Shown here: positions 31,587 to 62,938 of the stretch, piece by piece
How the letters are laid out: each line of letters begins with the position of its first letter
Numbering within the stretch: the stretch's first letter is position 1
Virus record (IMG/VR): IMGVR_UViG_3300032236_000548
Coordinates: 32,001 to 96,000 of that record
DNA length: 64,000 nt
Strand: one strand, 5' to 3'
Source: a virus
Notes under the pieces: model-generated
Seen by the model: the letters and a program-made list of their open reading frames with translations, nothing else
What the model was told of the DNA's origin: nothing
The model's database searches: none
Position numbers and translations under genes: made by a program

Positions 31587-32147
31587 ATGACAAGAGCATA
31601 CTATAGAAGAATAACTGGATCTACAATGCAAGGTGACGGCGGCCAAGTTGCTGAAAAAGCTGGCACCTTGGTAGTCAATGCAGACGGTACACTACACCTA
31701 CACGATGGGAGTACATCCGGTGGATTGCCTCTAGTGGTAGACAGTGATTGGGTAAATCCCAACGATCATACTTGGAAGATACGTACCTACAACGATGGGG
31801 CCGCTGTGAGTTTTGATGGCACTACACCTGTGGTATGGTTTGATGTGGCTAATAGCCCATCGGGCCTAGATCAGTTCCGCGGTGCTATTATTGAGTATCA
31901 CGCTTTTACCAGTCAAGGAACAATAGTTGGAACTATTCACATAGCCGACGATTATCAACCAGGGGATGCTTTTACGCACACTGAACATATGAGTGGCAGT
32001 CCCAATCTACAAACAGTACATCTTTGGGGCCCAGATGTTAGCTTGACTCGCGGGCGCCTATGTTTCAAGCGCACAGATGGACAAGCTGCCACACTAATGA
32101 TACAGTGGACCGCTAAGATATTCTACGGCTACGAAGCTGACTGCTAA
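31587..32147 (+). CDS. tail-fibre-associated protein
   Basis: L.LHDG.T.GG module; C-terminus (KRTDG...QWTAKIF...C) resembles that of 27196..31569. Confidence 0.65.
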   Translation: MTRAYYRRITGSTMQGDGGQVAEKAGTLVVNADGTLHLHDGSTSGGLPLVVDSDWVNPNDHTWKIRTYNDGAAVSFDGTTPVVWFDVANSPSGLDQFRGAIIEYHAFTSQGTIVGTIHIADDYQPGDAFTHTEHMSGSPNLQTVHLWGPDVSLTRGRLCFKRTDGQAATLMIQWTAKIFYGYEADC

Positions 32148-48670: not shown

Positions 48671-49546
48671 ATGACTGATTATTACCAAACACTAGGTGTT
48701 AGCGAAACAGCTAGCCCAGACGAAATTAAAAAAGCCTACAGAAAATTGGCTAATCAGCATCATCCAGACAAGGGTGGAGACCAAGCCAAATTTAAAGATA
48801 TTTCTGTAGCATACGATACACTGAGCGATGCTAACAAAAAAGCCGAATACGATCAACAACGTATGTATGGCAATAGCACACACTCATTCCATTCGGGAGG
48901 CGGATTTGATCCGTTTAGCGGAATGTTCGGTGGCGGTGGAAGTCCGTTCCCGCAAGGTCATCCTTTCAACGACATCTTTAGAGGTATGGGACGCGGTGCT
49001 GGGCAGATGAGAAAGAACAGAGACTTGAATATACAATGTACTATCTCATTTATAGATTCTTATCAAGGTAAACAACTAGAAGCAAACTACAGATTACCAA
49101 GTGGTAAAAATCAAACTGTAGTTATTAATGTTCCAGCTGGTATATTGCACGGAGATACAATTAAGTATCAAGGGTTAGGTGACGATAGTGTTCCTAACAT
49201 ACAGCGTGGTGATCTTAATGTAACTATTCTAGTTCAGCCTGATCCTAAATTTGCCCGTAACGGGGACGACTTATATACAACTATCTTTATTAATCCAATA
49301 GAAGCTATGATTGGTTGTAGGAAAACAATACAAACAATTTCTGGCGGGACAATGGATTTAGATATTCGTGCAGGAGTCGAGCATGGTGTCGAGTTTGCTA
49401 GCAATGGTAACGGATTTACTAATGTAAACACTGGGCGCAAAGGACGATTTGTTACTGTAGTTCATATTAGAACTCCAGCAATTAACGATCCAGCAATAGT
49501 AGCAAGACTGAGAGACATTAATGCCGACATTAGTAACCTTCCCTAA
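48671..49546 (+). CDS. DnaJ/CbpA-type co-chaperone (class B, no Zn finger)
   Basis: J domain with HPD, G/F-rich linker and a DnaJ C-terminal domain (GDL.V.I...P...F.R.GDDL). Confidence 0.92.
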   Translation: MTDYYQTLGVSETASPDEIKKAYRKLANQHHPDKGGDQAKFKDISVAYDTLSDANKKAEYDQQRMYGNSTHSFHSGGGFDPFSGMFGGGGSPFPQGHPFNDIFRGMGRGAGQMRKNRDLNIQCTISFIDSYQGKQLEANYRLPSGKNQTVVINVPAGILHGDTIKYQGLGDDSVPNIQRGDLNVTILVQPDPKFARNGDDLYTTIFINPIEAMIGCRKTIQTISGGTMDLDIRAGVEHGVEFASNGNGFTNVNTGRKGRFVTVVHIRTPAINDPAIVARLRDINADISNLP

Positions 49547-50027
49547 TCAAGTACTTAAACAACAAGCAGAACCTTTTCAATTTGAAACTGAGCAAGATTT
49601 AGAAAATGCTCGTCAACTTGAAATTGATATGGTTAAACTTATGATTGAGAGTAACGGAATTGGGCTTGCCGCAAATCAAGTCGGAATACTCAAAAGAGTA
49701 TTTGCTATACGTTTGCAGGATCAGGTTCCATTTTGTATGTTCAACCCGATAATTGTTTCACACACAGATGATATTGTAGAAGCAGAAGAAGGATGTTTGA
49801 GCTTTCCTAACTTGTGGCTCAAAGTAAAACGTCCTAGTTCAATTACTGCCGAATACTTTGACAGACAAGGAAAAAAGTGTATAATAGAATTGAAGGGAAT
49901 AGATGCTAGATGTTTCCAACATGAATTGGATCATTTGGATGGTGTTTGCTTCACAGATAAAATTAGTCCATTAAAACTAGCATTAGCTAAAAAGAAATTA
50001 CAAAAGAGGAAGAAATTCAATGGTTGA
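49521..50027 (+). CDS. def: peptide deformylase
   Basis: GIGLAANQ, EGCLS and QHELDHLDG. Confidence 0.95.
   Translation: MPTLVTFPNQVLKQQAEPFQFETEQDLENARQLEIDMVKLMIESNGIGLAANQVGILKRVFAIRLQDQVPFCMFNPIIVSHTDDIVEAEEGCLSFPNLWLKVKRPSSITAEYFDRQGKKCIIELKGIDARCFQHELDHLDGVCFTDKISPLKLALAKKKLQKRKKFNG
49858..49885 (+). promoter_or_regulatory. internal sigma70 promoter in def, upstream of clpA
   Basis: TTGACA (49858-63), 16 nt, TATAAT (49880-85). Confidence 0.65.
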
Positions 50028-52290
50028 ACCTAGTGATAACCTACAAGCGGTATTTGAAAAAGCAATTGATACTGCTAAGAAACTACATCACGAATACTTA
50101 ACAATCGAACATTTACTGTTTGCTATGTTAATGGAAGAAGGATTTGCTAATACTGTACAAGGGTTTGGTGCTAATGCTGATAACTTAAAACAAGAACTAG
50201 CAGACTATCTTCAAAACAAATGTGCAGAAATTACCATTGAAGACGTGGTTGTTAAGCCTAAAAAGACACAAGCCGTTGAACGTGTACTCAATCGTGCATT
50301 TACACAAACATTGTTTAATGGACGTCAGCGTATCGAGCCAACAGATGTTTTTCTTGCTATGATTGGCGAAAAACGTAGTTGGGCAAACTACTATATTCAA
50401 AAGGCTAATATTGACAAAGACAAATTTGCCGACTATTTGAATAATACTGTTGAAGAAGGTGAAGAAGAAGCGCCACAAGACAATCAAGGCGAACGTGCTT
50501 TGAAAGCATTTACAACAGACTTGAATGACCAAGTTATTAAGAACAAAGTTGATCCAGTTATCGGTCGAATTGACGAACTAGAAAACATTGCGTTGGCTTT
50601 AGGCCGTCGTAGTAAAAACAACGTAATCCTTGTTGGAGATCCTGGTGTAGGCAAGACGGCTATAGCCGAAGGTTTAGCATACAACATAGTTAAGGGCGCA
50701 GTCCCAGATTTCCTCAAAGATTACAAAGTATTCAGCTTAGATATTTCAGCTATGCTTGCTGGTAGTAAATATCGCGGTGACTTTGAAGAACGTTTTAAAC
50801 ACGTTATTAAAGCATTGCAGAAGAAAGGCAAGACTGTGTTGTTTATTGACGAAGCACACATGATTAGTGGTGCAGGTTCAGCAAGCAATTCAGCTAACGA
50901 CCTTGCTAACATGATGAAACCTGCGTTGTCTAAAGGTAATATTAAAGTTATTGCCTCAACTACTTGGGAAGAATATCGTAAACACTTTGAAAAGGATCGT
51001 GCGTTGATGCGCCGTTTCCAACGCATTACTGTCGACGAGCCTACACAAGAAATGACTGTTAGCATTTTGCAAGGTATTAAGAAATACTACGAACAATACC
51101 ATAATGTCAAAATTCGTAATGATGCTATCCAAGCGGCTGTTAAGCTGTCTGTTAAGTATCAAACAGATAAGAAGCTTCCAGATAAGGCAATTGACTTAAT
51201 TGACGTAGCATGTTCACGCTTTAATTTGAAACTTGCCGATGAACGTATTATCGGCGAACATGAGATTCAATACGAACTTGCTAAAATGATTCAAATGCCA
51301 GAAGAAAAGATTATGGAAACTGAGTCTAGCAACCTTGCCAGCTTACAAGACAACTTGCAAGCAGAAGTATACGGACAAGATCTTGCTCTTACAGAAATTG
51401 TAGACAAGATTATGGTTGCACAAGCTGGTTTGAAATCAGAAAACAAGCCAATTGGTAGTTTTGTATTCATGGGGCCAACTGGTACAGGTAAAACTGAAAC
51501 TGCTAAAGCCCTTGCTAAACACTTGGGTACTAAGTTGCTACGCTTTGATATGAGTGAATATCAAGAAAAGCATAGTATCTCTAAGCTAATTGGTAGCCCT
51601 CCTGGTTATGTTGGCTTTGAAGAGAACGCTGGATTGTTAATTACACAGATTCAAGAGAACCCAAATGCTGTTCTGTTGTTTGACGAAGTAGAAAAGTCAC
51701 ATCCAGATGTAACAACTGTATTGTTACAAATGATGGATAATGGATTTATTACTGGTTCGAATGGTAAGAAAGCTGATTGCCGTAACTTAATCCTTATTCT
51801 AACCACTAACGCTGGCGCACAAGATGCTGAGAAGAACGTTATCGGCTTTGGCACACAGGAAAAAGAGTACAGCGATAAAGACTTGAAGAAGTTCTTTACA
51901 CCAGAGTTCCGCAATCGTTTAGATGGCATCATGACATTTAACAAGTTGGGCAAAGAAACTATGGTTAAGATTGTTGGTAAGTTTATCGACGAACTACGTG
52001 CTCAAGTTAAAGAGAAAGGTGTTAAAGTCAAGCTAGATAAGGAAAGTACTAACTGGCTGATTGCTAAAGGCTTTGATCCTAAGATGGGCGCTCGTCCGTT
52101 ACAACGTGTTATTGACAAGGAAATTAAACGTCCGTTGGCAAAGGCTATGTTGTTTGGGGACTTGAAAGCTGGAGGTACTGCGTCAATTACTGTTGAAAAC
52201 GATCAACTAGTACTTGTATCAACTCCTAAAGAAGTTAAAGTAGCTTTATTAACAGTAGATGCTACTAAAGAGGAGTCGAATGCTGTATAA
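50020..52290 (+). CDS. clpA: ATP-dependent Clp protease ATPase subunit ClpA
   Basis: HEYLTIEHLL N-domain; two AAA+ modules (GDPGVGKT and GPTGTGKT); KYRGDFEER; IGF ClpP-docking loop; no ClpB M-domain. Confidence 0.93.
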   Translation: MVEPSDNLQAVFEKAIDTAKKLHHEYLTIEHLLFAMLMEEGFANTVQGFGANADNLKQELADYLQNKCAEITIEDVVVKPKKTQAVERVLNRAFTQTLFNGRQRIEPTDVFLAMIGEKRSWANYYIQKANIDKDKFADYLNNTVEEGEEEAPQDNQGERALKAFTTDLNDQVIKNKVDPVIGRIDELENIALALGRRSKNNVILVGDPGVGKTAIAEGLAYNIVKGAVPDFLKDYKVFSLDISAMLAGSKYRGDFEERFKHVIKALQKKGKTVLFIDEAHMISGAGSASNSANDLANMMKPALSKGNIKVIASTTWEEYRKHFEKDRALMRRFQRITVDEPTQEMTVSILQGIKKYYEQYHNVKIRNDAIQAAVKLSVKYQTDKKLPDKAIDLIDVACSRFNLKLADERIIGEHEIQYELAKMIQMPEEKIMETESSNLASLQDNLQAEVYGQDLALTEIVDKIMVAQAGLKSENKPIGSFVFMGPTGTGKTETAKALAKHLGTKLLRFDMSEYQEKHSISKLIGSPPGYVGFEENAGLLITQIQENPNAVLLFDEVEKSHPDVTTVLLQMMDNGFITGSNGKKADCRNLILILTTNAGAQDAEKNVIGFGTQEKEYSDKDLKKFFTPEFRNRLDGIMTFNKLGKETMVKIVGKFIDELRAQVKEKGVKVKLDKESTNWLIAKGFDPKMGARPLQRVIDKEIKRPLAKAMLFGDLKAGGTASITVENDQLVLVSTPKEVKVALLTVDATKEESNAV

Positions 52291-52918: not shown

Positions 52919-52987
52919 AGCCTTTGCAAAAGCGATAAATACTCTAACCGCAGAGATTTCTGCTGAACAGTAAAAACGGGCTTAAAA

Positions 52988-53359
52988 ATGCGTATAAAAG
53001 AACTATTAGAGGGCAAATATTTTGACGATATGAAGTTTGTCAAGCAAGAAGGCGACAAACGCGATATCGACTTTGATTTACCCGATGATCTTATACATTT
53101 CATGCACAACGATGACGATGTTTATCGCCGCCATCTTTTTCCTAAAATAGCACATTGTATCGATCAAGTTAAAGTTAAAAAACCTACAGATTTAGAAATT
53201 TTCAAACCAGCTGTTCAACACAGCTACAAACTATACATTAAAAAGTTTCCTATTCGCGAATTACCTACCGAGCTAGGTGACAAGATGATGGAACGTATTT
53301 GTGGTAAGTTGCACGATGATACCCTTCAAGATATCAAAGACGGTGTTTACAAGGATTAA
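52988..53359 (+). CDS. hypothetical late protein with an MRIKELLE leader
   Basis: GATAAATA at 52934-41; shared N-terminal motif. Confidence 0.78.
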   Translation: MRIKELLEGKYFDDMKFVKQEGDKRDIDFDLPDDLIHFMHNDDDVYRRHLFPKIAHCIDQVKVKKPTDLEIFKPAVQHSYKLYIKKFPIRELPTELGDKMMERICGKLHDDTLQDIKDGVYKD

Positions 53360-53361
53360 TC

Positions 53362-54603
53362 GTGTTACTAAGAGAACTATTCATTAGAGAAAATGTTAAA
53401 CCTGCTGAAACTAAAAAGAAACAAGTAGGCAGAGCATTCAACCACCCTGAAGATTTAACATTCATGAATGGTAGTAAAGGTGCTATTAAAGCACTCGAGC
53501 ACATTAAAAAGATCGGAACAGATTCTAGCGCAGTTCGTTTAAAGTGGGACGGTGCTCCTCAAGTATACTGGGGTTGGAATTGGAATGAACAAACTGGTCA
53601 ACACGAATTTGTAACCGCTAACCATAATGGTTGGTTACGTGGAGGCGGTGGCACTAGTGATGTTAGTGAGTTTACTAACCAACATGGCATTTTTAATTTT
53701 ATTGCTAACCGTAGCGGTAGTGCTAAAACTCCTGAAGAACAACAACAACGTGAAATATTTGCCAAAGAGTTTAGCTTCTTACATCCTGTTTTAGAAAAAG
53801 CAACAAAGCGTCCTAAGAAAGGTAAGAGTTTATTCTTCTATGCTGATGGATTATTCTTACAGCCTCCAAGAGTGGATGCTAACGGTGTTTATAACTTACA
53901 TCCTAATCCAAAAGGTAATACAGTTTATCATATTGCACAAGATACTGAATTAGGTCAGCGTATTAGCAGTGCCAGAGCAATGATGGTAGGTCATGGAATG
54001 TTTACACACTTTGGTGCTCCAGACGAAGCACAACAGGCAGTAGAAGATTTTAGTCCATACATTGACGATAATGTTTCCGATGTTATTATCCTTGGACCAT
54101 ACTATACACAAATTCAACCACAAGTAGATGTTGAAGCAATCAATCAAGTAGAACAAGATATTGCATCACACGGTGCAGAAATTGACAGTTTCCTTGCTCC
54201 GCTTGCTGGTGTAAGTGGATTTAAAAATATAATCTATCGTTATGTAAACACTATGGCTAAAGAAAGTAATTTACATAATGTAGCACATAACTTTATGACA
54301 TGGGCGCAGGCAAACCCTACAGTTGTAAGTGCTAATCAATATCAAAAAATACAAGAACGTTTACAACAATTCCCAGGCGGCTTAACTGCCATGTTTAATC
54401 TGTTTAGCAGTATTATGCAATTAAAGAATCATATACTTGCACAGTTAGATGCAGACCCCGGTGAGATTAAAGTAAGTAATCCAGAAGGTTGGGTACACTA
54501 CGACAAGAAAGGTGACGACCACATTAAGATGGTGCCGCGTCACGATATAGAAACTCCACATGGAACAACTATTCCAGCGTGGGTACCAGGAATGCCAAAA
54601 TGA
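53362..54603 (+). CDS. covalent nucleotidyltransferase (RNA/DNA ligase-fold)-like protein
   Basis: KWDG (motif I), YADG (III-like), PEGWV (IV) and IKMV (V); no OB domain; GTG start, MLLRELFIRE leader. Confidence 0.6.
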   Translation: MLLRELFIRENVKPAETKKKQVGRAFNHPEDLTFMNGSKGAIKALEHIKKIGTDSSAVRLKWDGAPQVYWGWNWNEQTGQHEFVTANHNGWLRGGGGTSDVSEFTNQHGIFNFIANRSGSAKTPEEQQQREIFAKEFSFLHPVLEKATKRPKKGKSLFFYADGLFLQPPRVDANGVYNLHPNPKGNTVYHIAQDTELGQRISSARAMMVGHGMFTHFGAPDEAQQAVEDFSPYIDDNVSDVIILGPYYTQIQPQVDVEAINQVEQDIASHGAEIDSFLAPLAGVSGFKNIIYRYVNTMAKESNLHNVAHNFMTWAQANPTVVSANQYQKIQERLQQFPGGLTAMFNLFSSIMQLKNHILAQLDADPGEIKVSNPEGWVHYDKKGDDHIKMVPRHDIETPHGTTIPAWVPGMPK

Positions 54604-55640
54604 GATTAAGACAATTATTTGAATCAGGTCATGCTAAAGCAGATGCGGCATTTTGCTTTGGACGTTTTAATCCTCCGCATCAAGGTCATGCAGAAGTTTG
54701 GTCAGCAGTTAAAAACTCTGCACATAAATGGTATATTGGCACAAACCCAACTACTATCGGACCTAACGATCCGTTAGCTTTTAATACTAAGACAGCATGG
54801 ATGACTGCCATCGATCCTGAAATTGAAGGACATATATTAGGCGAAACAAGCGTACTTACACTAGCCGCTAGAATTTTTAGCCACTTAGGCGAAGGTGTAA
54901 CTATTGGTTACGTTACAGACGAAACAGACTGGGCGTGGGCCGGTAAGCTATTACATCAGTACAACGGACAAAAGAGTTTACACGGATATTTTAATTTTAA
55001 AGGTATTATTCATATTCCTAGCCCACGAGTTATGAGTGCTACGAAATTACGTGAAGCCGCTCGTGCAGGCAATGAGGAGCTGTTTTATCAATTAGCTGGC
55101 GTAGATCCAGAACTAAAAGTACATGGAAAATCATTCTTTGAAACCGTAGCAGAAGCATGTGGACAACATCCTATTAAAGCTAAAAAAGTTAAGAAAGAAA
55201 AGGCTGTAGTACAAGAATTAAATTCGATTAAATATGCTAATAAGGTATTAAGAGAAATGAAATTAAGAGAATTGTTCAGAGAAGGCAAAGTTACAGATGT
55301 ACATCCAGATCATGATGCTGTACATCAAGGCGGAGTAAGTAGAAGCCGTGACGTTGGAGGGTACGATCGTGTTTACCACATGAATCGTTTGATGATGGCT
55401 ATGGCTATGGCTAACGGTAAAGATACCAAAGCTGTTGATAGCCCAGAATCAACTTGGGTTGAAAAATTTAACACACACCATCCTTATACCAAAGAAGAAC
55501 ATAATATGATTCATTCGGCATTTAAAACTGTGCCAACTGACAAAGAAGAAATTTCTCCGTGGGAGAAAAGCGAAGAACCTAAAGATACAAACATAGTAAG
55601 CCCTGTGGCTAAATCTAAAAAGAACAAATACGGAATCTAA
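54600..55640 (+). CDS. HxGH cytidylyltransferase-like nucleotidyltransferase fused to a second domain
   Basis: FGRFNPPHQGH and MSATKLR; start ATG 54600; in-frame internal start MKLRELFRE at 55257. Confidence 0.8.
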   Translation: MRLRQLFESGHAKADAAFCFGRFNPPHQGHAEVWSAVKNSAHKWYIGTNPTTIGPNDPLAFNTKTAWMTAIDPEIEGHILGETSVLTLAARIFSHLGEGVTIGYVTDETDWAWAGKLLHQYNGQKSLHGYFNFKGIIHIPSPRVMSATKLREAARAGNEELFYQLAGVDPELKVHGKSFFETVAEACGQHPIKAKKVKKEKAVVQELNSIKYANKVLREMKLRELFREGKVTDVHPDHDAVHQGGVSRSRDVGGYDRVYHMNRLMMAMAMANGKDTKAVDSPESTWVEKFNTHHPYTKEEHNMIHSAFKTVPTDKEEISPWEKSEEPKDTNIVSPVAKSKKNKYGI

Positions 55641-55641
55641 C

Positions 55642-56082
55642 ATGGAACACGATAAGTATCATCTAGCACTTAAGACAGCGTTTGCTAGTGAATATGCCTT
55701 TGCTATCAAGGCACAAAACTTTCATTGGAATTGTGAAGGTCCATTATTTTATCAATTGCATTTGTTATTTGAACGTGTTTACGAAGAAGTATATGGTAGC
55801 ATCGATACGTTTGCTGAACAAATTCGTGCATTACAAGTATACACTCCAGCAAGTTTGGAAAAGTTTAGTATGCTATCAGCAGTCAAAGATGAAAACGAAA
55901 TACTAGATTTTGAAAGTATGCTCCGTGAACTACTAGCAGACAGCGATAAAATGGCTGAGATTTTCCGTATTACGTTCGATATGGCTGAACATCACGGAGA
56001 TCATGGACTAAGTAATTTTTTAGCTGATAGACAAGATGCACACAAGAAGCACAGTTGGATGTTAAGAGCGAGCTTGAAGTAA
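55642..56082 (+). CDS. dps: Dps-family ferritin-like protein
   Basis: NFHWN.EG..F..LH.LFE..Y....D..AE.IR and HKK.SWML. Confidence 0.92.
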   Translation: MEHDKYHLALKTAFASEYAFAIKAQNFHWNCEGPLFYQLHLLFERVYEEVYGSIDTFAEQIRALQVYTPASLEKFSMLSAVKDENEILDFESMLRELLADSDKMAEIFRITFDMAEHHGDHGLSNFLADRQDAHKKHSWMLRASLK

Positions 56083-56294
56083 TGGATGATTTAGCACGTC
56101 TTAAGAAGTTAGCCGGTGTTAATGAATTTAAAGGCCTGCAACCTTACGAGCTAGATGGAATAAACATAAGCATTACTGGAACTGAAAAAGCCAAGTTGAT
56201 GCGTGAAAATAATATTAAACCGGGGACACCCGAATGGTTTCAACTATGGTTTAGTAAGCCTTACTTAACTGGTGAGAAACCTGTAGGAAAATAA
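56082..56294 (+). CDS. small hypothetical protein
   Basis: Start ATG 56082 (TAATG coupling); LARLKKLAG and IKPGTPEWF.LWF. Confidence 0.75.
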   Translation: MDDLARLKKLAGVNEFKGLQPYELDGINISITGTEKAKLMRENNIKPGTPEWFQLWFSKPYLTGEKPVGK

Positions 56295-56296
56295 TT

Positions 56297-57091
56297 ATGA
56301 AAATTGAACATTTAATCGGTCTAACTAAAGAGCAATTATTAGAAATGGACAAGAGCCAGAAAGGTGCTCCAGGTTGGAATATTAGTGACGATGAGCCAGG
56401 CGGCAAGGAACATTACGTTAAAGCAGTTAAAGCTAAAGATGTTGTTAAAAGCGCACACAAAGAGCTTAACAAGGCATTTAAAGGTGTGGATAGAAATAAA
56501 GTCGAAAAGCATAGTTATAAAAAGAATGAATTTGATATGAAAGAAAATCATAGAGATGCTTACGAACGTGACTACGATAGTAGCGTGAGTGGATTCGGCC
56601 GTTCAGCTAGAGATTGGGACGAAGGTGATCAAGAACCACCAAACAATTTTGCTATCTACATTAACGGTAAGAAGTGGAAGGTATTCCCTGGAGAAGGGTA
56701 TCACGCAGACGATCATCGCGAGCGCATTCAGCACCAACGACTACGAGATATGTGTGCTAAAAAAACAGCACAATCAGGTAAGAAATGGTCAGTTCATGCT
56801 ACTGGTGAAAATCCAACTTCTGAAAGTGTATCTGAATCAGCTACAGCAGGCGCTACTAGTGCCGCTAACATTGGAACAGTTGATGCACCTCAGTTAAGTC
56901 CAGGTAAAGCACGTGGTAAAAAGAGCTACACAGGTAGTATGTCTAGTGGCTCAGGTACTAAAGCACCTCCACAACCAGTAGTAAAACAACCTAAAAACAA
57001 GGATGGAACAGCTAAAAATGGCCTGGATATTAAAGGCACAAGTCTGTTCGGCGGGCCCGCTAACGAGGGCGCAGTAATCAAAAGACGCTAA
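56297..57091 (+). CDS. hypothetical protein, probably an internal head protein
   Basis: Charged, low-complexity modules separated by hydrophobic-x-E sites (LLE, MKE, VSE). Confidence 0.7.
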   Translation: MKIEHLIGLTKEQLLEMDKSQKGAPGWNISDDEPGGKEHYVKAVKAKDVVKSAHKELNKAFKGVDRNKVEKHSYKKNEFDMKENHRDAYERDYDSSVSGFGRSARDWDEGDQEPPNNFAIYINGKKWKVFPGEGYHADDHRERIQHQRLRDMCAKKTAQSGKKWSVHATGENPTSESVSESATAGATSAANIGTVDAPQLSPGKARGKKSYTGSMSSGSGTKAPPQPVVKQPKNKDGTAKNGLDIKGTSLFGGPANEGAVIKRR

Positions 57092-57120
57092 ATATATAAA
57101 GAGAATAACGGAGTATACTC

Positions 57121-58605
57121 ATGCCACCAGAATTAGATAATCAAGACCCAGAACTAGACGCACCAGAGATGGGCGCAGAAGATCCAGCAATGGGCGAGCC
57201 AGACGCTGAGCCAGAAATGGCTGAACCAACCGGTGATTCCGAAGTAATCGGACTACACGGTGATGAAGGCGACCGCGAAGGTGCAATGGCTAAAGCTGAT
57301 TTGTTTAAATTAGCTAACTATTCACACAAATTGTACCAACAATTGAATGACGAAGATCAATTAGAGTCATGGGTACAAGCAAAGATTACTAAAGCGGCTG
57401 ACTACATTGCGTCAGTATATCACTATTTAGAATATGAAATGAAGTTCAGCGAATATGGACATCATTTAGATAACAGCGACACATTGAGCGAATCACAAAA
57501 ACGTGCTCTTAAAAATCGCTTAATGGAGGCTAAAATGAGAATTAAAGAATTGAAACAAGCACAAGCAGAAAAAGTTACTATCGCAGAAGGTATTTTACGT
57601 GGCGGTGAACATGAGTGTGCTGAATGCGGTGGTACTGGTATTGTTCATATGCCTGGTATTGAGCCAAGCGAAAAAGCAAAACGTCTAGCTAAAAAGCATG
57701 ACACTTCTACTCGCGCACACTTTGCGGCTATGAAGCGTTTGCAAGCTGAAGGCGATGACGAAATGGAAGAAGGCTTTGAAGCAGGTGCTAAGGCTGGTTC
57801 AGAATTCAAAACAAAGACTGGTGTTGCTACAAAAACTCCAACAGGTTTAAAGCACACAAATACAAGTCATAGTGATGAAGAGCATGGCGAGCCACCAAGC
57901 AAAGTTAAAGCTCGTTCAGCGGCTGACAAAGCAGGCGAGAAAGCTCAAGACAAAGCTGACGAGAAAGAATCTAAAGCATGGGGCAAAGCTAATCCAGGTA
58001 AGCAACACATCTACAAAGATGGTAAGAAAGTTAACGAAGCCAAACTAAAAGGCAAGCAGACTAAGTTAGATGTTGATAAAGATGGCGACATTGAAGCAGA
58101 CGACCTAGCTGACTTACGTGCTGGCAAGAAGGCTAAGAAAGTTTCTGAGGCTGCTAAACCAAGTGCTGGTTTAAGCAAAGAGAAAAAATCTGCTGTAGTT
58201 AAGAAAGCCAAAGCTGGTGGAGACATTGGTAAGCCAGGTAAGAGCTTTGACAAAGTAGCTAAGGCTGCTGGTGGTGGTAAGAAAGGCGAGAAGATTGCCG
58301 CTGCCGCTATGTGGAAGAACATTAAAGAAACTACTGCATACCTAGCTGAAAAGAAAAAGAAAGAAAAAATGACTGATGAGAATTTAACAGTTGTTCCAAA
58401 TCCATCAGGTGCTAAGGATGCTGAAGAAGCTAAGAAATTAGGTGCCGCAATGCCTAAGCCAGCAGGTTCAGCAAAAGATCCAATCAGCGAATCAGCACGT
58501 TTACGTGAATTAACTGGACGTTTGAACCGTGCTGAAAGACCAGCATTAGTTGAAAATCGTGAAGTTGATCAAATCCGTGCATTGACACAACGTCTATTGG
58601 GATAA
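57121..58605 (+). CDS. modular charged protein, probably prohead core/internal
   Basis: Acidic N-terminus, CAECGGTG, EF-hand-like DVDKDGDIEADD and Lys-rich modules; TAAATA at 57089. Confidence 0.75.
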   Translation: MPPELDNQDPELDAPEMGAEDPAMGEPDAEPEMAEPTGDSEVIGLHGDEGDREGAMAKADLFKLANYSHKLYQQLNDEDQLESWVQAKITKAADYIASVYHYLEYEMKFSEYGHHLDNSDTLSESQKRALKNRLMEAKMRIKELKQAQAEKVTIAEGILRGGEHECAECGGTGIVHMPGIEPSEKAKRLAKKHDTSTRAHFAAMKRLQAEGDDEMEEGFEAGAKAGSEFKTKTGVATKTPTGLKHTNTSHSDEEHGEPPSKVKARSAADKAGEKAQDKADEKESKAWGKANPGKQHIYKDGKKVNEAKLKGKQTKLDVDKDGDIEADDLADLRAGKKAKKVSEAAKPSAGLSKEKKSAVVKKAKAGGDIGKPGKSFDKVAKAAGGGKKGEKIAAAAMWKNIKETTAYLAEKKKKEKMTDENLTVVPNPSGAKDAEEAKKLGAAMPKPAGSAKDPISESARLRELTGRLNRAERPALVENREVDQIRALTQRLLG

Positions 58606-58612
58606 TATTCCG

Positions 58613-59959
58613 ATGGACATGAAGCGCATACTACAGGCGATGGATGGTGTTGCTACAAAGCCTGTAGCAGGTGCTAATGACATGGCACGATTCTTACGTG
58701 CTGTTACAGAAGCCGATATCAATCAAGAAGTCGTTGAAGACGAAGTAATTGACAATGGAGATGGTTCTACTAGAACTAATCATCCAGACGGGACATATAC
58801 TATATCCGACGGTGGCGGTATCACAACATACGATGCCCAAGGAACTGTTATTAAACATAACAGTCCTAGCTTTGCTGGATATTCGCAATCAACAGATAGT
58901 AAAGGTCAAGTTACAAAAAACTTTAACCAAGGGCCTATGAGTATACAGCAAGGTCCACAAGGAACTACTGCTAACTATCAATTAGGAGATAAGAATTTAC
59001 AAACAACTGTTAAAGAAGACAGTTTAAGTAAATTCCTGTCAATTATCGATAAAAATAATGTTAGTATTCTTAACGAAGGTGCTAACCCGCATAAAGTCAG
59101 TTTGCCAGTACAAATGGCAATGCAACATTATCAAAAGCCACAAGAGCCTATTAAAACTGTAGGACGTAACAATACGTTTGGCAAATACTTCCACAAAGTA
59201 GAACAAGAAGTTAACGAAGCTGTTGCAGAAGAACAAGCACAAAAACGTCAACTAATTAATCAGTATGCTAGTGTTATTGCTGAACGTGTCTTAATGAAAG
59301 AAGCCGCTAATCCAGCACAACAGGCTGCTATTGCTATTTCTAAAAAGAAAGAACAACAAGCAGACGAAAGCCTTAAGTCAGACAATCCATGCTGGAAGGG
59401 ATATCATCCTGTAGGTACTAAGAAGAAGGGCGGGCGTACTGTTCCTAACTGTGTACCAACTAACGAAAATGAAATTCCAGGACATAGTATGGGATTTACC
59501 GGTGGAGTTGGTCCAGGCATTCAGAGTAGTGTTGCTGAAACTCCGTTAGAATTAGATCGCGATAATCCAATGGCTAGTATGGTACATAGTCATCAAGGTG
59601 CTAATCCTGGCAGTATTGAATATCGTATTATGCGAGCACGTCGTCAATTACAAGATTTGGCTAAACAAGCTGAAAGCGATAGTCCGCTAGTATGGCAACA
59701 CATTGCTAGATTATTTCCAGAACTAGCAATGAACATTGAGCAAATTAATCACGGACTTGGTGAATTAAAGAACATCCGTAGCAAAGGCGGAAAGAATAGC
59801 AAAAATATTCCTGCCTTAGAATCCGTATTGCCAACAATTAAACCAAAAACAATTAAACCAAAAGCAAAGACAAGCGTATGTAAAGCTGGTCAAGTGCAAA
59901 CTGGAATGCAAACAAAGGATGGTAAATCTGTGCCCAAGTGCTCAGTAACTAAGAAATAA
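58613..59959 (+). CDS. modular protein, probably an internal head protein
   Basis: MDMKRIL leader; two Cys-flanked motifs (CWKGY...VPNC and CKAG...VPKC); many hydrophobic-x-E sites. Confidence 0.72.
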   Translation: MDMKRILQAMDGVATKPVAGANDMARFLRAVTEADINQEVVEDEVIDNGDGSTRTNHPDGTYTISDGGGITTYDAQGTVIKHNSPSFAGYSQSTDSKGQVTKNFNQGPMSIQQGPQGTTANYQLGDKNLQTTVKEDSLSKFLSIIDKNNVSILNEGANPHKVSLPVQMAMQHYQKPQEPIKTVGRNNTFGKYFHKVEQEVNEAVAEEQAQKRQLINQYASVIAERVLMKEAANPAQQAAIAISKKKEQQADESLKSDNPCWKGYHPVGTKKKGGRTVPNCVPTNENEIPGHSMGFTGGVGPGIQSSVAETPLELDRDNPMASMVHSHQGANPGSIEYRIMRARRQLQDLAKQAESDSPLVWQHIARLFPELAMNIEQINHGLGELKNIRSKGGKNSKNIPALESVLPTIKPKTIKPKAKTSVCKAGQVQTGMQTKDGKSVPKCSVTKK

Positions 59960-59971
59960 CAGGAAGATGAT

Positions 59972-62578
59972 ATGAACTTAAGAGACTTAATGACTAAACT
60001 TGATACAATTTCAGAAGCAGATTCTACTGGCCGTATCGATTATAAAGCCAATCAAGCCCAAGATGCTAAAGAGAAGGCAATTGCCGATGTTAAACAAATG
60101 GCAAGTACACCGTTGAATAGCATTCCTCGTTTTGGTGTTGCTATTGATCCAAAAACTGGACAAATTTTCTACGGTGATGCTGGCGGAGAAACTGGTAACC
60201 CATCACCAAAAGGTTATCCATACAAGTGGATGCAACCAAACGGTCCAGCCGAAAGTGTTAGAGATGGCAATCGTATTCGTGCATCAGGTTTAGAAATTGT
60301 AGAAAAGAATGGTTATGCTTATGTCGATCCTACTAAACTTGCAACAATTGGTGACGGTGGTGGTGGCAAACCTGATAACAAACCAGTAGGTCCACAAGGT
60401 AAAGATACAAGTGCAGACGATGCCGCAAAGTTAGAAGCATTGACAAATCAATTAGATGCACTATTGCAAGGCGGTGGCGGTGGACAGCCTGTAACTCCAC
60501 ATCCTCATATTCCTCCAAAGATCGATCCTAAGACTGGAAAACCATTTAATTGGAAGGAACTTGCGGCCGCTGGTGCAGTAAGTGCGATGCCAGGAGCAAT
60601 GGTTGGCGGACTACCAGGTGCGGCTCTTACTGGTGCAACTGGCGCCGGTGTCGATGCATATCATCAACTACATAAAGAAGGTAAAGAATATAGTATTGCT
60701 CAAGCATTAGTTGAAAGTTTTGATTATCAATTAAATGAAAAGCAATCCTGGATGGGAGATATTCCAGGCGCTAACTATGATGCATCATTTGGTGTTAAAC
60801 AACCTGAAGCTCCTGTATACGATCCTAATCAAAAATATAGAGATGCATTAGCAAATCAAGATAAAGTAGCGGCTGAAAAGAAAGCCGCATCTGATGCTAG
60901 ATTAAAATCAATGATGCCCGAACCAACAGCACCTGCTACAACAGCTCCGGCTAAGACAGCTCCTAATTTTGGTGGCGGTCAAATGCAAGGTAACGTATCT
61001 AGTGTCAAATACGACGCACCAAACTTAACAAAAGTTGCACCGTCTAGTGCTGCCGCAGGTGCAGAAACAAAGATTGCTACCAGTTTAGAAAAAGCTGGTG
61101 TGCCAATTGCTAAAAATGCCGAACAAGCTGCCGCAACTGTTGCCGCTAAAGCTGGTACTAAAGCCGGTGGAAAGATTTTAAGTAAACTAATTCCTGGTGT
61201 TGGATTAGTTGTAGGTACTATCGATGCCGTTAAACGTGCTCAAGAAGGCGACTGGACTGGGGCCGCAATGGCAGGTGCTAGTGGTTTATTGAGTTTAGTA
61301 CCAGGTGTAGGTGGTGCAGTTGCTATGGGATTAGATGCCGCTAACATTGCACGTGACTACAAAGCTGGCAAATTTAGTTCCGACGGCGGCGCTGGTGGTG
61401 GTGGCGCACACGGTGGTTCTACTACCGGCGGTGATGCAAAACTAGTTCAATTACAAAAAATAATTGGAGCTAAACCAGATGGGTTGATGGGGCCGGAAAC
61501 TAGCGAAAAGCTAAAAGCATGGCAACAAAAGAATGGTATTAAAGTAGACGGTCAACCAGGCCCAGAAACTTATGGCAAAGCTGGTATTAAAGAAGAACAA
61601 GTTACTGTTGCAGAAAGTATCCGCAACATGCAACAACGTCTACAGTTAATTGAAACTAAAGCACAGATTAAACAAAAACTAGAACAACGCTATCACTTAG
61701 ACGAGTACTGCTACATGTACAATAGTCGTGGTGAGCAAATTACAGACTTAGTTGAAATTGCTGTTATTAACGAAGCATATGCAAACGGTGAAGTTGATAT
61801 CGACGAAGGTGTTTGGAGTGACTTGTTTAAGGGCGGAATGGAATACGGCGGTAAAGCTCTAAAAGGTATTAAAGACTTTACAGGTGCCGCAGTTAAAGGC
61901 GGCGCAAGTCCAGCGGCAGCAGAAAGATTAGCAGGACAGGCTGGTATTACTGGTGCTAAGAAAGCTGGTTTGAAAACTGGTGCGGCTATTGCTAAAAATC
62001 CAATTAAAGCAGCCTTAGGTGCTACAGCATTAGGCGCAGGTGCCGGTTTAGCATTAGGCGGCGGCAAACCTACAACTACTACAGACACCGGAGGTGGTGG
62101 CGGTGGTGGAGGTGGTGGCGGTGGTGGTGGAGGTGGTGGTTCACAAACCGGCACAACTGATACTCCAGCAACTCCTACTGATCCAAAGATCCAAGAGATT
62201 ATCAAGCAAATGAAAGAGTTAATGATGTCGCACGGTGATGAACCAAACCCAGCACCAATTTGGGTACAAGCAACATCACATGCTCAAGCAGTTATTGATA
62301 AAGCTGAACATGCTAGCAAAGAACAAACTGCTTCCGATGCCAAAGCTTCTCAAGCAGACAAGACTGCGGTAGCAGGTGCTACTCCAACAACTACTCCAGA
62401 TAGTGGTCAAGCTGGTAGCCCAGCTGGAACAACTGGTACTCCAAAATCAAATGCAGTTAATGTTAGTGGAGCGGCAGATATTCCAGGAGTCAAAAGCGAT
62501 AAACAAGATTCAACAGTGAAAGTTTATAAAGAAGATGATGAACTAGCTCGTTGGTTAAGAATCGCCCGCGGACAGTAA
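59972..62578 (+). CDS. large protein with a peptidoglycan-binding domain and Gly/Ala-rich hydrophobic helices
   Basis: LQ..IG..PDG.MGPET...LK.WQ..NG..VDG..GPET (PG_binding_1-like); MNLRDLMTKLDTISE leader; Gly17 linker. Confidence 0.78.
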   Translation: MNLRDLMTKLDTISEADSTGRIDYKANQAQDAKEKAIADVKQMASTPLNSIPRFGVAIDPKTGQIFYGDAGGETGNPSPKGYPYKWMQPNGPAESVRDGNRIRASGLEIVEKNGYAYVDPTKLATIGDGGGGKPDNKPVGPQGKDTSADDAAKLEALTNQLDALLQGGGGGQPVTPHPHIPPKIDPKTGKPFNWKELAAAGAVSAMPGAMVGGLPGAALTGATGAGVDAYHQLHKEGKEYSIAQALVESFDYQLNEKQSWMGDIPGANYDASFGVKQPEAPVYDPNQKYRDALANQDKVAAEKKAASDARLKSMMPEPTAPATTAPAKTAPNFGGGQMQGNVSSVKYDAPNLTKVAPSSAAAGAETKIATSLEKAGVPIAKNAEQAAATVAAKAGTKAGGKILSKLIPGVGLVVGTIDAVKRAQEGDWTGAAMAGASGLLSLVPGVGGAVAMGLDAANIARDYKAGKFSSDGGAGGGGAHGGSTTGGDAKLVQLQKIIGAKPDGLMGPETSEKLKAWQQKNGIKVDGQPGPETYGKAGIKEEQVTVAESIRNMQQRLQLIETKAQIKQKLEQRYHLDEYCYMYNSRGEQITDLVEIAVINEAYANGEVDIDEGVWSDLFKGGMEYGGKALKGIKDFTGAAVKGGASPAAAERLAGQAGITGAKKAGLKTGAAIAKNPIKAALGATALGAGAGLALGGGKPTTTTDTGGGGGGGGGGGGGGGGGSQTGTTDTPATPTDPKIQEIIKQMKELMMSHGDEPNPAPIWVQATSHAQAVIDKAEHASKEQTASDAKASQADKTAVAGATPTTTPDSGQAGSPAGTTGTPKSNAVNVSGAADIPGVKSDKQDSTVKVYKEDDELARWLRIARGQ
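62090..62140 (+). repeat. GGN microsatellite encoding Gly17
   Basis: 17 consecutive GGA/GGT/GGC codons. Confidence 0.9.
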
Positions 62579-62581
62579 AAT

Positions 62582-62607
62582 AAATGGCAGACTAGTTCTG
62601 CCATTTT
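62582..62607 (+). terminator. intrinsic terminator
   Basis: AAATGGCAGA-ctagt-TCTGCCATTTT directly after the 62578 stop. Confidence 0.8.
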
Positions 62608-62629: not shown

Positions 62630-62658
62630 TTGATTTTGTAAGATAAGTAGTTTATAAT
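62630..62658 (+). promoter_or_regulatory. sigma70 promoter
   Basis: TTGATT (62630-35), 17 nt, TATAAT (62653-58). Confidence 0.72.
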
Positions 62659-62680: not shown

Positions 62681-62938
62681 ATGGCAGGTCGTTCATACGG
62701 TGCAGAAGAAAAGGCAAAATTAGAGCGTTTGATTTCGGAAGGTAGTACAGTACTACGTGAAATTGAAGACTTATCAGAAGGCTTAAAAGAAACTGTTAAA
62801 GCAGTTGCAGAAGAACTACAGGTAAAACCTAGTGTTATTAATCGTGCTATTAAGATTGCTCATAAAGGCGATTGGAGTTCGCATAACGAAGACTGGGAAG
62901 AAATTGAAGCAATTTTGGATATCACCAAGCGTATCTAA
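62681..62938 (+). CDS. small dsDNA-binding protein (T4 DsbA/GapR-like)
   Basis: 85-aa helical protein (EIEDL.E.LKE.VK.VAEEL...P.VINRAIKIA); AAGGAG SD; family call by resemblance only. Confidence 0.55.
   Translation: MAGRSYGAEEKAKLERLISEGSTVLREIEDLSEGLKETVKAVAEELQVKPSVINRAIKIAHKGDWSSHNEDWEEIEAILDITKRI

Follow-up and report, generated by a model that had tools for sequence, protein, structure and literature searches.

The prohead protease of bacteriophage T4, gp21, cleaves by the rule Leu/Ile-x-Glu. In the T4 internal protein (IP) IPIII, the first ten residues are enough for incorporation into the head; positions 4 and 7 matter in targeting, and processing is affected by positions 8 and 10. 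Ten residues are lost from gp24, and gp21 cuts after Glu (PMC9026906, PMC9958956, PMC5694885). Read from the T4 record (NC_000866), the N-termini in question are MKTYQEFIAE for IPII and IPIII, MKTFKEFTS for IPI, MAKINELLRE for gp24 and MELITELFDE for Alt. In the phiKZ-like giant phages (phiKZ, 201phi2-1 and SPN3US), many proteins inside the head are processed after Glu, at A/S/G-x-Glu, by a protease related to gp21 and are believed to leave the virion by ejection (PMC5694885). However, their propeptides are mostly longer than 100 residues and have no single shared short motif, while the cleavage motif has a small residue in place of Leu/Ile. For DarB of phage P1, an N-terminal peptide is sufficient for capsid entry and delivery, but this signal has 30 residues of unrelated sequence and was shown in the same study for DarB only (PMC9024508). 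The subject of the present analysis is a short N-terminal leader shared by unrelated proteins encoded at positions 52,935–62,606 of a 64,000-nucleotide stretch of viral DNA (the window), which corresponds to bases 32,001–96,000 of a 104,655-bp IMG/VR virus record (G000; CheckV completeness 28%).

The family-B DNA polymerase (polB) of this record had its nearest counterparts (~48% identity) in four jumbo phages, Phosso, PA5oct, Vibrio phage 2.275.O and Atu_ph07. The window belongs to an uncultured jumbo phage within the T4 superfamily, in a different group from the phiKZ-like phages. Positions 52,935–62,606 read as one late operon of ten tightly packed genes, all on the plus strand. Neither this block (by megablast) nor one of its genes, g413 (by tblastn), matched any GenBank phage, and relaxing the E-value brought up distant cyanophage homologues only. 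Comparisons were drawn with relatives from IMG/VR, among which G001 (345,369 bp, 94% complete, 87% ClpA identity) served as the reference genome for the lineage.

The leader was an amphipathic stretch of 7–10 residues, consisting of Met, a basic residue or Leu, then Leu, Ile or Ala, Arg or Lys, Glu, Leu or Phe, and Phe, Leu or Ile, mostly with Glu at position 8–10; as a pattern it was written M-[RKLN]-[LIA]-[RK]-[EQD]-L-[FLM], then usually Glu at position 8–10. Five of the ten operon genes carried it, in addition to one copy nested in frame. It was clear at four real starts, namely MRIKELLE (52988), MLLRELFIRE (53362), MRLRQLFE (54600) and MNLRDLMTKLDTISE (59972), while MKIEHLI (56297) was a degenerate copy. 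When a permissive expression was run through all six frames of the 104.6-kb record, the true starts that matched were those at 52988, 53362, 54600 and 56297, together with MRASHILV of a parvulin-like protein; the same scan matched the in-frame internal site at 55257, and a second leader pattern added the start at 59972. MRASHILV, which is unrelated, was the single matching true start beyond the block. Apart from it the motif was confined to this late operon, and the scans placed no copy at the start of a replication, tail, chaperone or metabolic gene.

The same restriction was seen among relatives. In G001 the motif occurred at 11 of 397 open reading frame (ORF) starts, compared with 3 of 1976 internal Met residues (Fisher p = 5.7e-7), one of these three being the conserved nested copy. 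Both this and the record scan argue against the motif being equally common at early or non-virion starts. Across 89 related IMG/VR loci, 249 of 1507 ORFs matched, all within five block families and none outside them. Once their first 15 residues were trimmed off, proteins with the leader fell into five groups without BLAST similarity to each other. Glu occupied position 8–10 in 118 of 151 distinct leaders, and the residue after it was mostly G, N, A or S. The first-pass annotation had described unrelated proteins in a row that begin with nearly the same leader; that observation is real but partial, because the leader is present on about half of the block genes, and the Dps-like gene, g79, g494 and the gene starting MDMKRIL (58613) do not have it. 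The last of these had been listed as a leader, but falls outside the motif because Arg stands where the motif has Glu, Asp or Gln; it is a separately conserved N-terminus.

Further starts of leader type were present in G001 beyond the block, at 31762, 321281, 321886, 322571 and 337314 (minus strand). Three of them belong to consecutive genes at 321–322 kb, and one of the genes with such a start weakly matches a PHROG family of virion structural proteins. The start MEIKELF of a 2-oxoglutarate (2OG)-Fe(II) oxygenase in G001 was taken to be a chance match and was set aside, because the oxygenase family profile covers it from residue 1.

The leader was conserved as a peptide and recurred as a portable one. 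Nearly all of 120 DUF6267 homologues of g413, down to 38% identity, started with MLLRELF-x-RE or MRA-x-[ED]F-x-x-E, and their layout was a leader, a variable linker and then a conserved domain opening with GRAFNH-x-EDL. The 123-residue product of g123 (52988–53359, plus strand; leader MRIKELLE at 52988–53011) had no match in Pfam, PHROG or the protein Atlas, and its 83 orthologues in related loci started MRI-x-[ED]-LLE-[GN] with synonymous codon variation. Across orthologues generally, leader codons varied synonymously (Arg as AGA, CGC, CGT or CGA; Leu as TTA, CTA, CTG or TTG; Phe as TTT or TTC; Glu codons also) while the residues were fixed. Because synonymous codons vary and residues remain constant, selection acts on the peptide and not on the mRNA. 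In syntenic contigs, added and unrelated block genes began MRAKEFITE, MRAKEFLSE, MRLRELIRE or MKINDLLTE. Conversely, distant homologues of the DUF6267/transferase gene pair in cyanophages S-CAM4 and S-8S53 were leaderless, as was the transferase homologue EST35_0307 of PA5oct; the tag is therefore an add-on, rather than an integral part of these proteins.

The head machinery that such a leader would require was found in relatives. A Peptidase_S77 protease of the T4 gp21 type, which the earlier annotation had proposed to look for, was identified with Pfam in G001 (5.6e-27), G003 (1.2e-26) and G007 (7.8e-27), these three genomes having lengths of 345, 98 and 270 kb. The protease gene of G001 was flanked by a portal-sized gene and by genes for an acidic protein, a coiled-coil scaffold and the capsid protein, and the same arrangement was seen in G007. 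The G001 capsid protein matched Pfam Gp23 (2.9e-98); its N-terminus aligned with the gp23 propeptide and contained the gp23-like elements ALLE-G and YLME-S. In each of G001, G003 and G007, a gene of ~79 residues starting MILRELFY stood between those for the portal and the protease, in the position of T4 gene 67, and a late-promoter core lay immediately 5' of it in G001 and G003.

Comparison with the N-termini removed in T4 bore out the suggested resemblance to head-targeting peptides. A common core, Glu-(Leu/Phe)-(Phe/Leu/Ile)-x-Glu, can be seen when MRAKEFITE, MLLRELFIRE and MKINDLLTE of this lineage are set beside the T4 sequences. In both cases a leader of ~10 residues is borne by unrelated proteins, the genes being late in T4 and probably late here; the set of cargo proteins varies between relatives, and enzymes are included, Alt being the T4 example. 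Head genes of T4 type, for the portal, the S77 protease, the scaffold and the Gp23 capsid protein, are also present in the relatives. Unlike in T4, the cargo genes here are gathered in one ~10-kb operon, and there is an in-frame internal leader. The putative cargo also differs from the small basic proteins of T4 in comprising ligase-fold and NMNAT/PPAT-fold enzymes and an 868-residue peptidoglycan-binding protein. By this analogy, the leader is most probably the lineage's own version of the T4-type capsid-targeting sequence or propeptide, and the locus may be regarded as a well-supported variant of the T4 capsid-targeting system. Packaging, cleavage and injection of the tagged proteins we infer on the same grounds. 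The leader would bind the scaffolding core during prohead assembly, so that the tagged protein becomes enclosed in the prohead; the gp21-type (S77) protease would then cut after a hydrophobic-x-Glu site, and the mature protein would stay in the head with the DNA and probably enter the cell at infection, as do the T4 IPs and Alt. The tagged cargo would consist of the 123-residue protein, the DUF6267 ligase-fold enzyme, the NMNAT/PPAT-fold transferase with its additional module, a variable basic protein and the 868-residue protein. The broader claim, that the whole block is a dedicated head-packaged set, is supported with corrections: the sequence-based checks proposed with it all turned out in its favour, relatives have the head machinery, about half of the genes are tagged, and four are untagged.

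Several observations weigh against a T4-type targeting role. In twelve of the 151 distinct leaders, positions 8–16 contained no Glu, and the Leu or Ile found two positions before Glu is partly forced by the expression with which the leaders were gathered. The common core is one residue nearer to Met in this phage than in T4. Four operon genes (the Dps-like gene, g79, g494 and g448) have no leader. The PF03420 profile was not found in the phage's own 104.6-kb record, a 28% fragment from which the head genes are absent; the protease is therefore seen solely in relatives, whose ClpA identities are 71–87%. The leader DNA pattern did not exceed its reversed-pattern control in PA5oct, Vibrio phage 2.275.O, Atu_ph07 or Phosso, and these cultured polB relatives therefore supply no experimental anchor for the leader. 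Finally, the block is accompanied by ClpA and ClpP genes in both G001 and G007, and a deformylase was matched in G007; ClpA and the leader are not separable, both being present in these two genomes.

This co-occurrence lends itself to a different explanation, in which the leader is an N-degron or adaptor tag for a phage ClpA-ClpP protease that limits the lifetime of late proteins or matures them. The clpA gene lies ~0.7 kb upstream of the operon, adjoining the deformylase gene. Yet the leader also heads a head-module gene far from clpA, ClpA is outside the late transcription unit, and nearly identical peptides are used by T4, which is not known to have annotated Clp genes; nor is any ClpA degron known to have the leader sequence. 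A proteolytic tag, suggested by gene neighbourhood only and leaving the T4 match unexplained, is thus considered extremely unlikely. Very unlikely, too, is a generic short helix, concerned with oligomerisation, membrane contact or co-translational folding, that was spread by recombination and has no connection with the capsid. Such a helix was indeed predicted by AlphaFold2 at residues 3–8 of g346, and recombination could explain the clustering of leader genes, but the match to T4, the Glu at position 8–10, the copy in the head module and the leaderless enzymes of other phages would all be left unexplained. To a similarity arising by chance, or through an mRNA-level feature such as the translation initiation region, next to no probability is given: the sequences are AT-rich and short, but chance is contradicted by the enrichment statistics, while synonymous codon turnover with fixed residues is taken to exclude an mRNA-level cause.

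The remaining alternative accepts that the leader directs proteins to the prohead core, but supposes that they act in assembly only, like T4 gp67 and gp68, and are degraded or expelled at maturation instead of being delivered. It would fit the 79-residue protein: the leader gene best conserved beyond the block occupies the place of gene 67 in the head module, and in T4 gp21 cleaves core proteins as well (PMC9026906). No obvious part in assembly is apparent, however, for folded enzymes of 46 and ~22 kDa or for a peptidoglycan-binding protein with glycine-rich hydrophobic segments, and T4 Alt shows that an enzyme can be tagged, trimmed and then ejected; a role confined to assembly is unlikely for the operon proteins. 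Delivery with the DNA, following targeting of the T4 type, is the reading retained below.

The two adjacent enzyme genes provided the clearest view of what the leader is attached to. The first, g413 (53362–54603, plus strand), has a GTG start, its leader MLLRELFIRE at 53362–53391 and a KWDG motif at 53542–53553. It matched Pfam DUF6267 (PF19782) with E = 7.4e-16 and 58.9 bits, against a cut-off of 27, and its homologues carry PF19782 also. Alignment of homologues showed that K61-W-D-G64, E375-G-x-V378 and K389 were invariant; these would correspond to motifs I (KxDG), IV (EGxV) and V (Lys) of the ATP-dependent RNA/DNA ligases, a superfamily of covalent nucleotidyltransferases. The AlphaFold2 model had a mean predicted local distance difference test score (pLDDT) of 88, with residues 1–23 below 50. 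Its top structural matches were nearly all RNA or DNA ligases (5cot, 1xdn, 1s68, 2hvq), with modest Z scores of 6–7 and Foldseek E-values of ~0.03; these modest matches point to an RNA-ligase-fold enzyme, in keeping with a DUF6267 ligase-fold nucleotidyltransferase.

The second enzyme, g346 (54600–55640, plus strand; leader MRLRQLFE at 54600–54623), starts in an ATGA overlap with the preceding stop codon. It consists of an HxGH adenylyltransferase-like domain (residues 12–195; HQGH at 54678–54689) and a C-terminal module of ~127 residues. It matched a PHROG cytidyltransferase family (E = 4.6e-14), while the match to Pfam CTP_transf_like was below cut-off; H27, G29 and H30 were invariant and S146-A-T-x-L-R151 nearly so. 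Foldseek returned NadM, NadD, NMNAT and PPAT at E ~1e-4 with probability 1.0, and residues 12–195 are modelled in an HxGH fold of the NMNAT/NaMNAT/PPAT type; pLDDT was low at residues 1–11 and 196–346. Sequence and profile searches of the PDB with g413 and g346 found no match. The earlier statement that the cargo includes two enzymes and a peptidoglycan-binding protein thus agrees with the ligase-fold, NMNAT/PPAT-fold and PG_binding_1 matches.

In cyanophages S-CAM4 and S-8S53, a DUF6267-like gene and a gene annotated as 'cytitidyltransferase' stand side by side in the same order as here; that pair differs in being leaderless and in its location among genes for replication and nucleotide metabolism (MazG, primase-helicase, NrdB). 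In G001 the DUF6267 gene (L100, G001:178603–180456) encodes 617 residues, with an extra ~230 residues after the same leader, and the transferase slot (L101, 177341–178603) has a different HxGH-like domain (GWGRGMGHKGH) joined to the same C-terminal module. Modules have been swapped here behind a constant leader.

A leader was also nested within g346. This element (55229–55283, plus strand, in frame) consists of TTAAATA at 55229–55235, a Shine-Dalgarno-like stretch (AAGG/AAGAG) and the leader MKLRELFRE at 55257–55283, and is preceded in the protein by a Lys-rich linker and the conserved IKYANKV-x-RE. TTAAATA lies in coding sequence, and 24 distinct sequences kept it at 22 nt before the nested ATG, the same spacing as for other late promoters; 24 distinct relatives retained TTAAATATGCTAATAAGGTA upstream of this ATG with little synonymous change. 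The module downstream occurs as a stand-alone leader-bearing gene in L003, and is fused behind a different enzyme domain in G001. The nested leader could mark a late gene within a gene, or else a joint at which the protease would cut a polyprotein. A bolder proposal, possible but doubtful, is that the operon is a plug-in cargo cassette in which the leader marks the module boundary and, at the same time, that an intracellular enzyme pair has been turned into pre-made, injected enzymes. The internal late-promoter-like site and in-frame leader would allow the module either to ride on the enzyme or to be made alone, and relatives would be swapping modules at exactly the leader joints. Once injected, the enzymes could act before phage gene expression, for example by resealing nucleic acid or by restoring a nucleotide cofactor attacked by host defences.

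Transcription signals were consistent with late expression of the block. A late-promoter core, ATAAATA (52935–52941, plus strand), is placed 47 nt upstream of g123, and GATAAATACTCTAA at this promoter was kept in L003, L005, L010 and G001. In the phage's own record ATAAATA was depleted 6–7 fold (9 copies, against ~60 expected), and eight of the nine copies lay 5–47 nt upstream of a start on the same strand. A second site, TAAATA (57089–57094, plus strand), overlaps the stop codon of g264 and precedes g494 by 26 nt; its distance to the g494 orthologue was constant in all six sequences compared (the window, L003, L005, L010, G001 and G007). Three late promoters had been proposed, at 52936, 55229 and 57089; the first corresponds to the good core at 52935 and the third is conserved, whereas the one at 55229 is within coding sequence, albeit conserved in 24 sequences. 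A 10-bp hairpin followed by a T run (62582–62606, plus strand) is the likely end of the operon, and the gene after it, g85, has a sigma-70-like promoter of its own at 62630–62658. With conserved late-promoter cores and a terminator hairpin as its bounds, the operon is likely to be expressed late.

Over the whole of G001, ATAAATA was depleted about 2-fold (72 copies, against ~152 expected). In both records it is almost restricted to sites immediately 5' of gene starts on the same strand, and it can therefore serve to map late genes in this lineage. The 5' untranslated region that follows the first late promoter (52942–52987) can pair as a short hairpin (CCGCAGA...TCTGCTG); that of G001 differs in sequence and yet can also pair (CCCAA...TTGGG), so that a conserved stem in the leader RNA may be present.

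Among the other operon genes, the largest is g868 (59972–62578, plus strand), which has a long-form leader, at 59972–60016, that was retained in orthologues; the G001 protein at 31762 carries the same long form. Its product contains PG_binding_1 (61469–61573; Pfam 1.3e-9), two Gly-rich hydrophobic segments identified by hydropathy scan (61175–61231 and 61265–61321) and a run of 17 glycines, features that would suit an ejection protein acting at the cell envelope. The variable basic protein g264 (56297–57091, plus strand), to which Pfam and PHROG assigned no family, is the bearer of the degenerate leader; the genes that occupy its slot in relatives begin with MKINDLLTE, MKMTDLINE or MKIKELLEG.

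Of the leaderless genes, the Dps/ferritin-like one (55642–56082, plus strand; Pfam Ferritin 4e-21, PHROG DNA-binding protein 3.8e-29) has the N-terminus MEHDKYHL; it is conserved within the block of G001 and is found elsewhere in the block in G007. The gene g79 (56082–56294, plus strand), of 70 residues from its ATG, starts MDDLARLKKLAGV and showed 91% identity over its 70-residue G001 orthologue. The product of g494 (57121–58605, plus strand) has an acidic N-terminal part, with the conserved start MP-x-[ED]LDN, and a Lys-rich C-terminal part, and matched no family in Pfam or PHROG. The scaffold protein of relatives (G001:90124–91218, G007:99918–101009) ends IDIR(K/R)LAGLK; the N-terminus of g79 (56082–56120) resembles this extreme C-terminus, and g494 has ARLRELTG near its own C-end (58501–58521). 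Such scaffold-tail-like segments may be a second way of joining the prohead; the rarity of the pattern is an unfair test, because the pattern was made after the examples were seen. The fourth leaderless gene, g448 (58613–59959, plus strand), begins MDMKRILQAMDG, and this N-terminus is conserved in relatives and shows no leader match in the window; the conserved form MDMKRILQAMDGVATKP is MDMKQILQALD in G007. PHROG families of unknown function matched residues 203–286. A Cys mini-module of g448, NPCWKGY...VPNCVP, recurs in degenerate form at the C-end, and is inserted in the transferase linker of L011.

Just beyond the operon, g85 (62681–62938) encodes 85 residues with 50% identity to PA5oct EST35_0310, which is annotated as structural and was detected by electrospray ionisation tandem mass spectrometry (ESI-MS/MS); both genes are upstream of polB in their phages. 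The PA5oct block upstream of polB holds virion proteins detected by mass spectrometry, but homology with the present locus is limited to g85/EST35_0310 and the leaderless EST35_0307. The phage also encodes DnaJ-like, peptide deformylase, ClpA-like and ClpP-like proteins (window 48671–52290; G000:C1:30581–31171).

If the leader is indeed a T4-type targeting sequence, then a simple sequence rule would predict which proteins are packed in the head, and probably delivered, across a lineage of uncultured giant phages; otherwise, such knowledge of packaging requires cultured phages and proteomics of their virions. Being short and portable, the leader is directly testable as a packaging tag in T4-style protein delivery. 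DUF6267, hitherto an orphan, would gain a context in this lineage, that of an enzyme with a ligase fold, an HxGH transferase as partner and a head tag, and enzymes would be seen to shift between an intracellular and a packaged life through the gain of a ten-residue tag.

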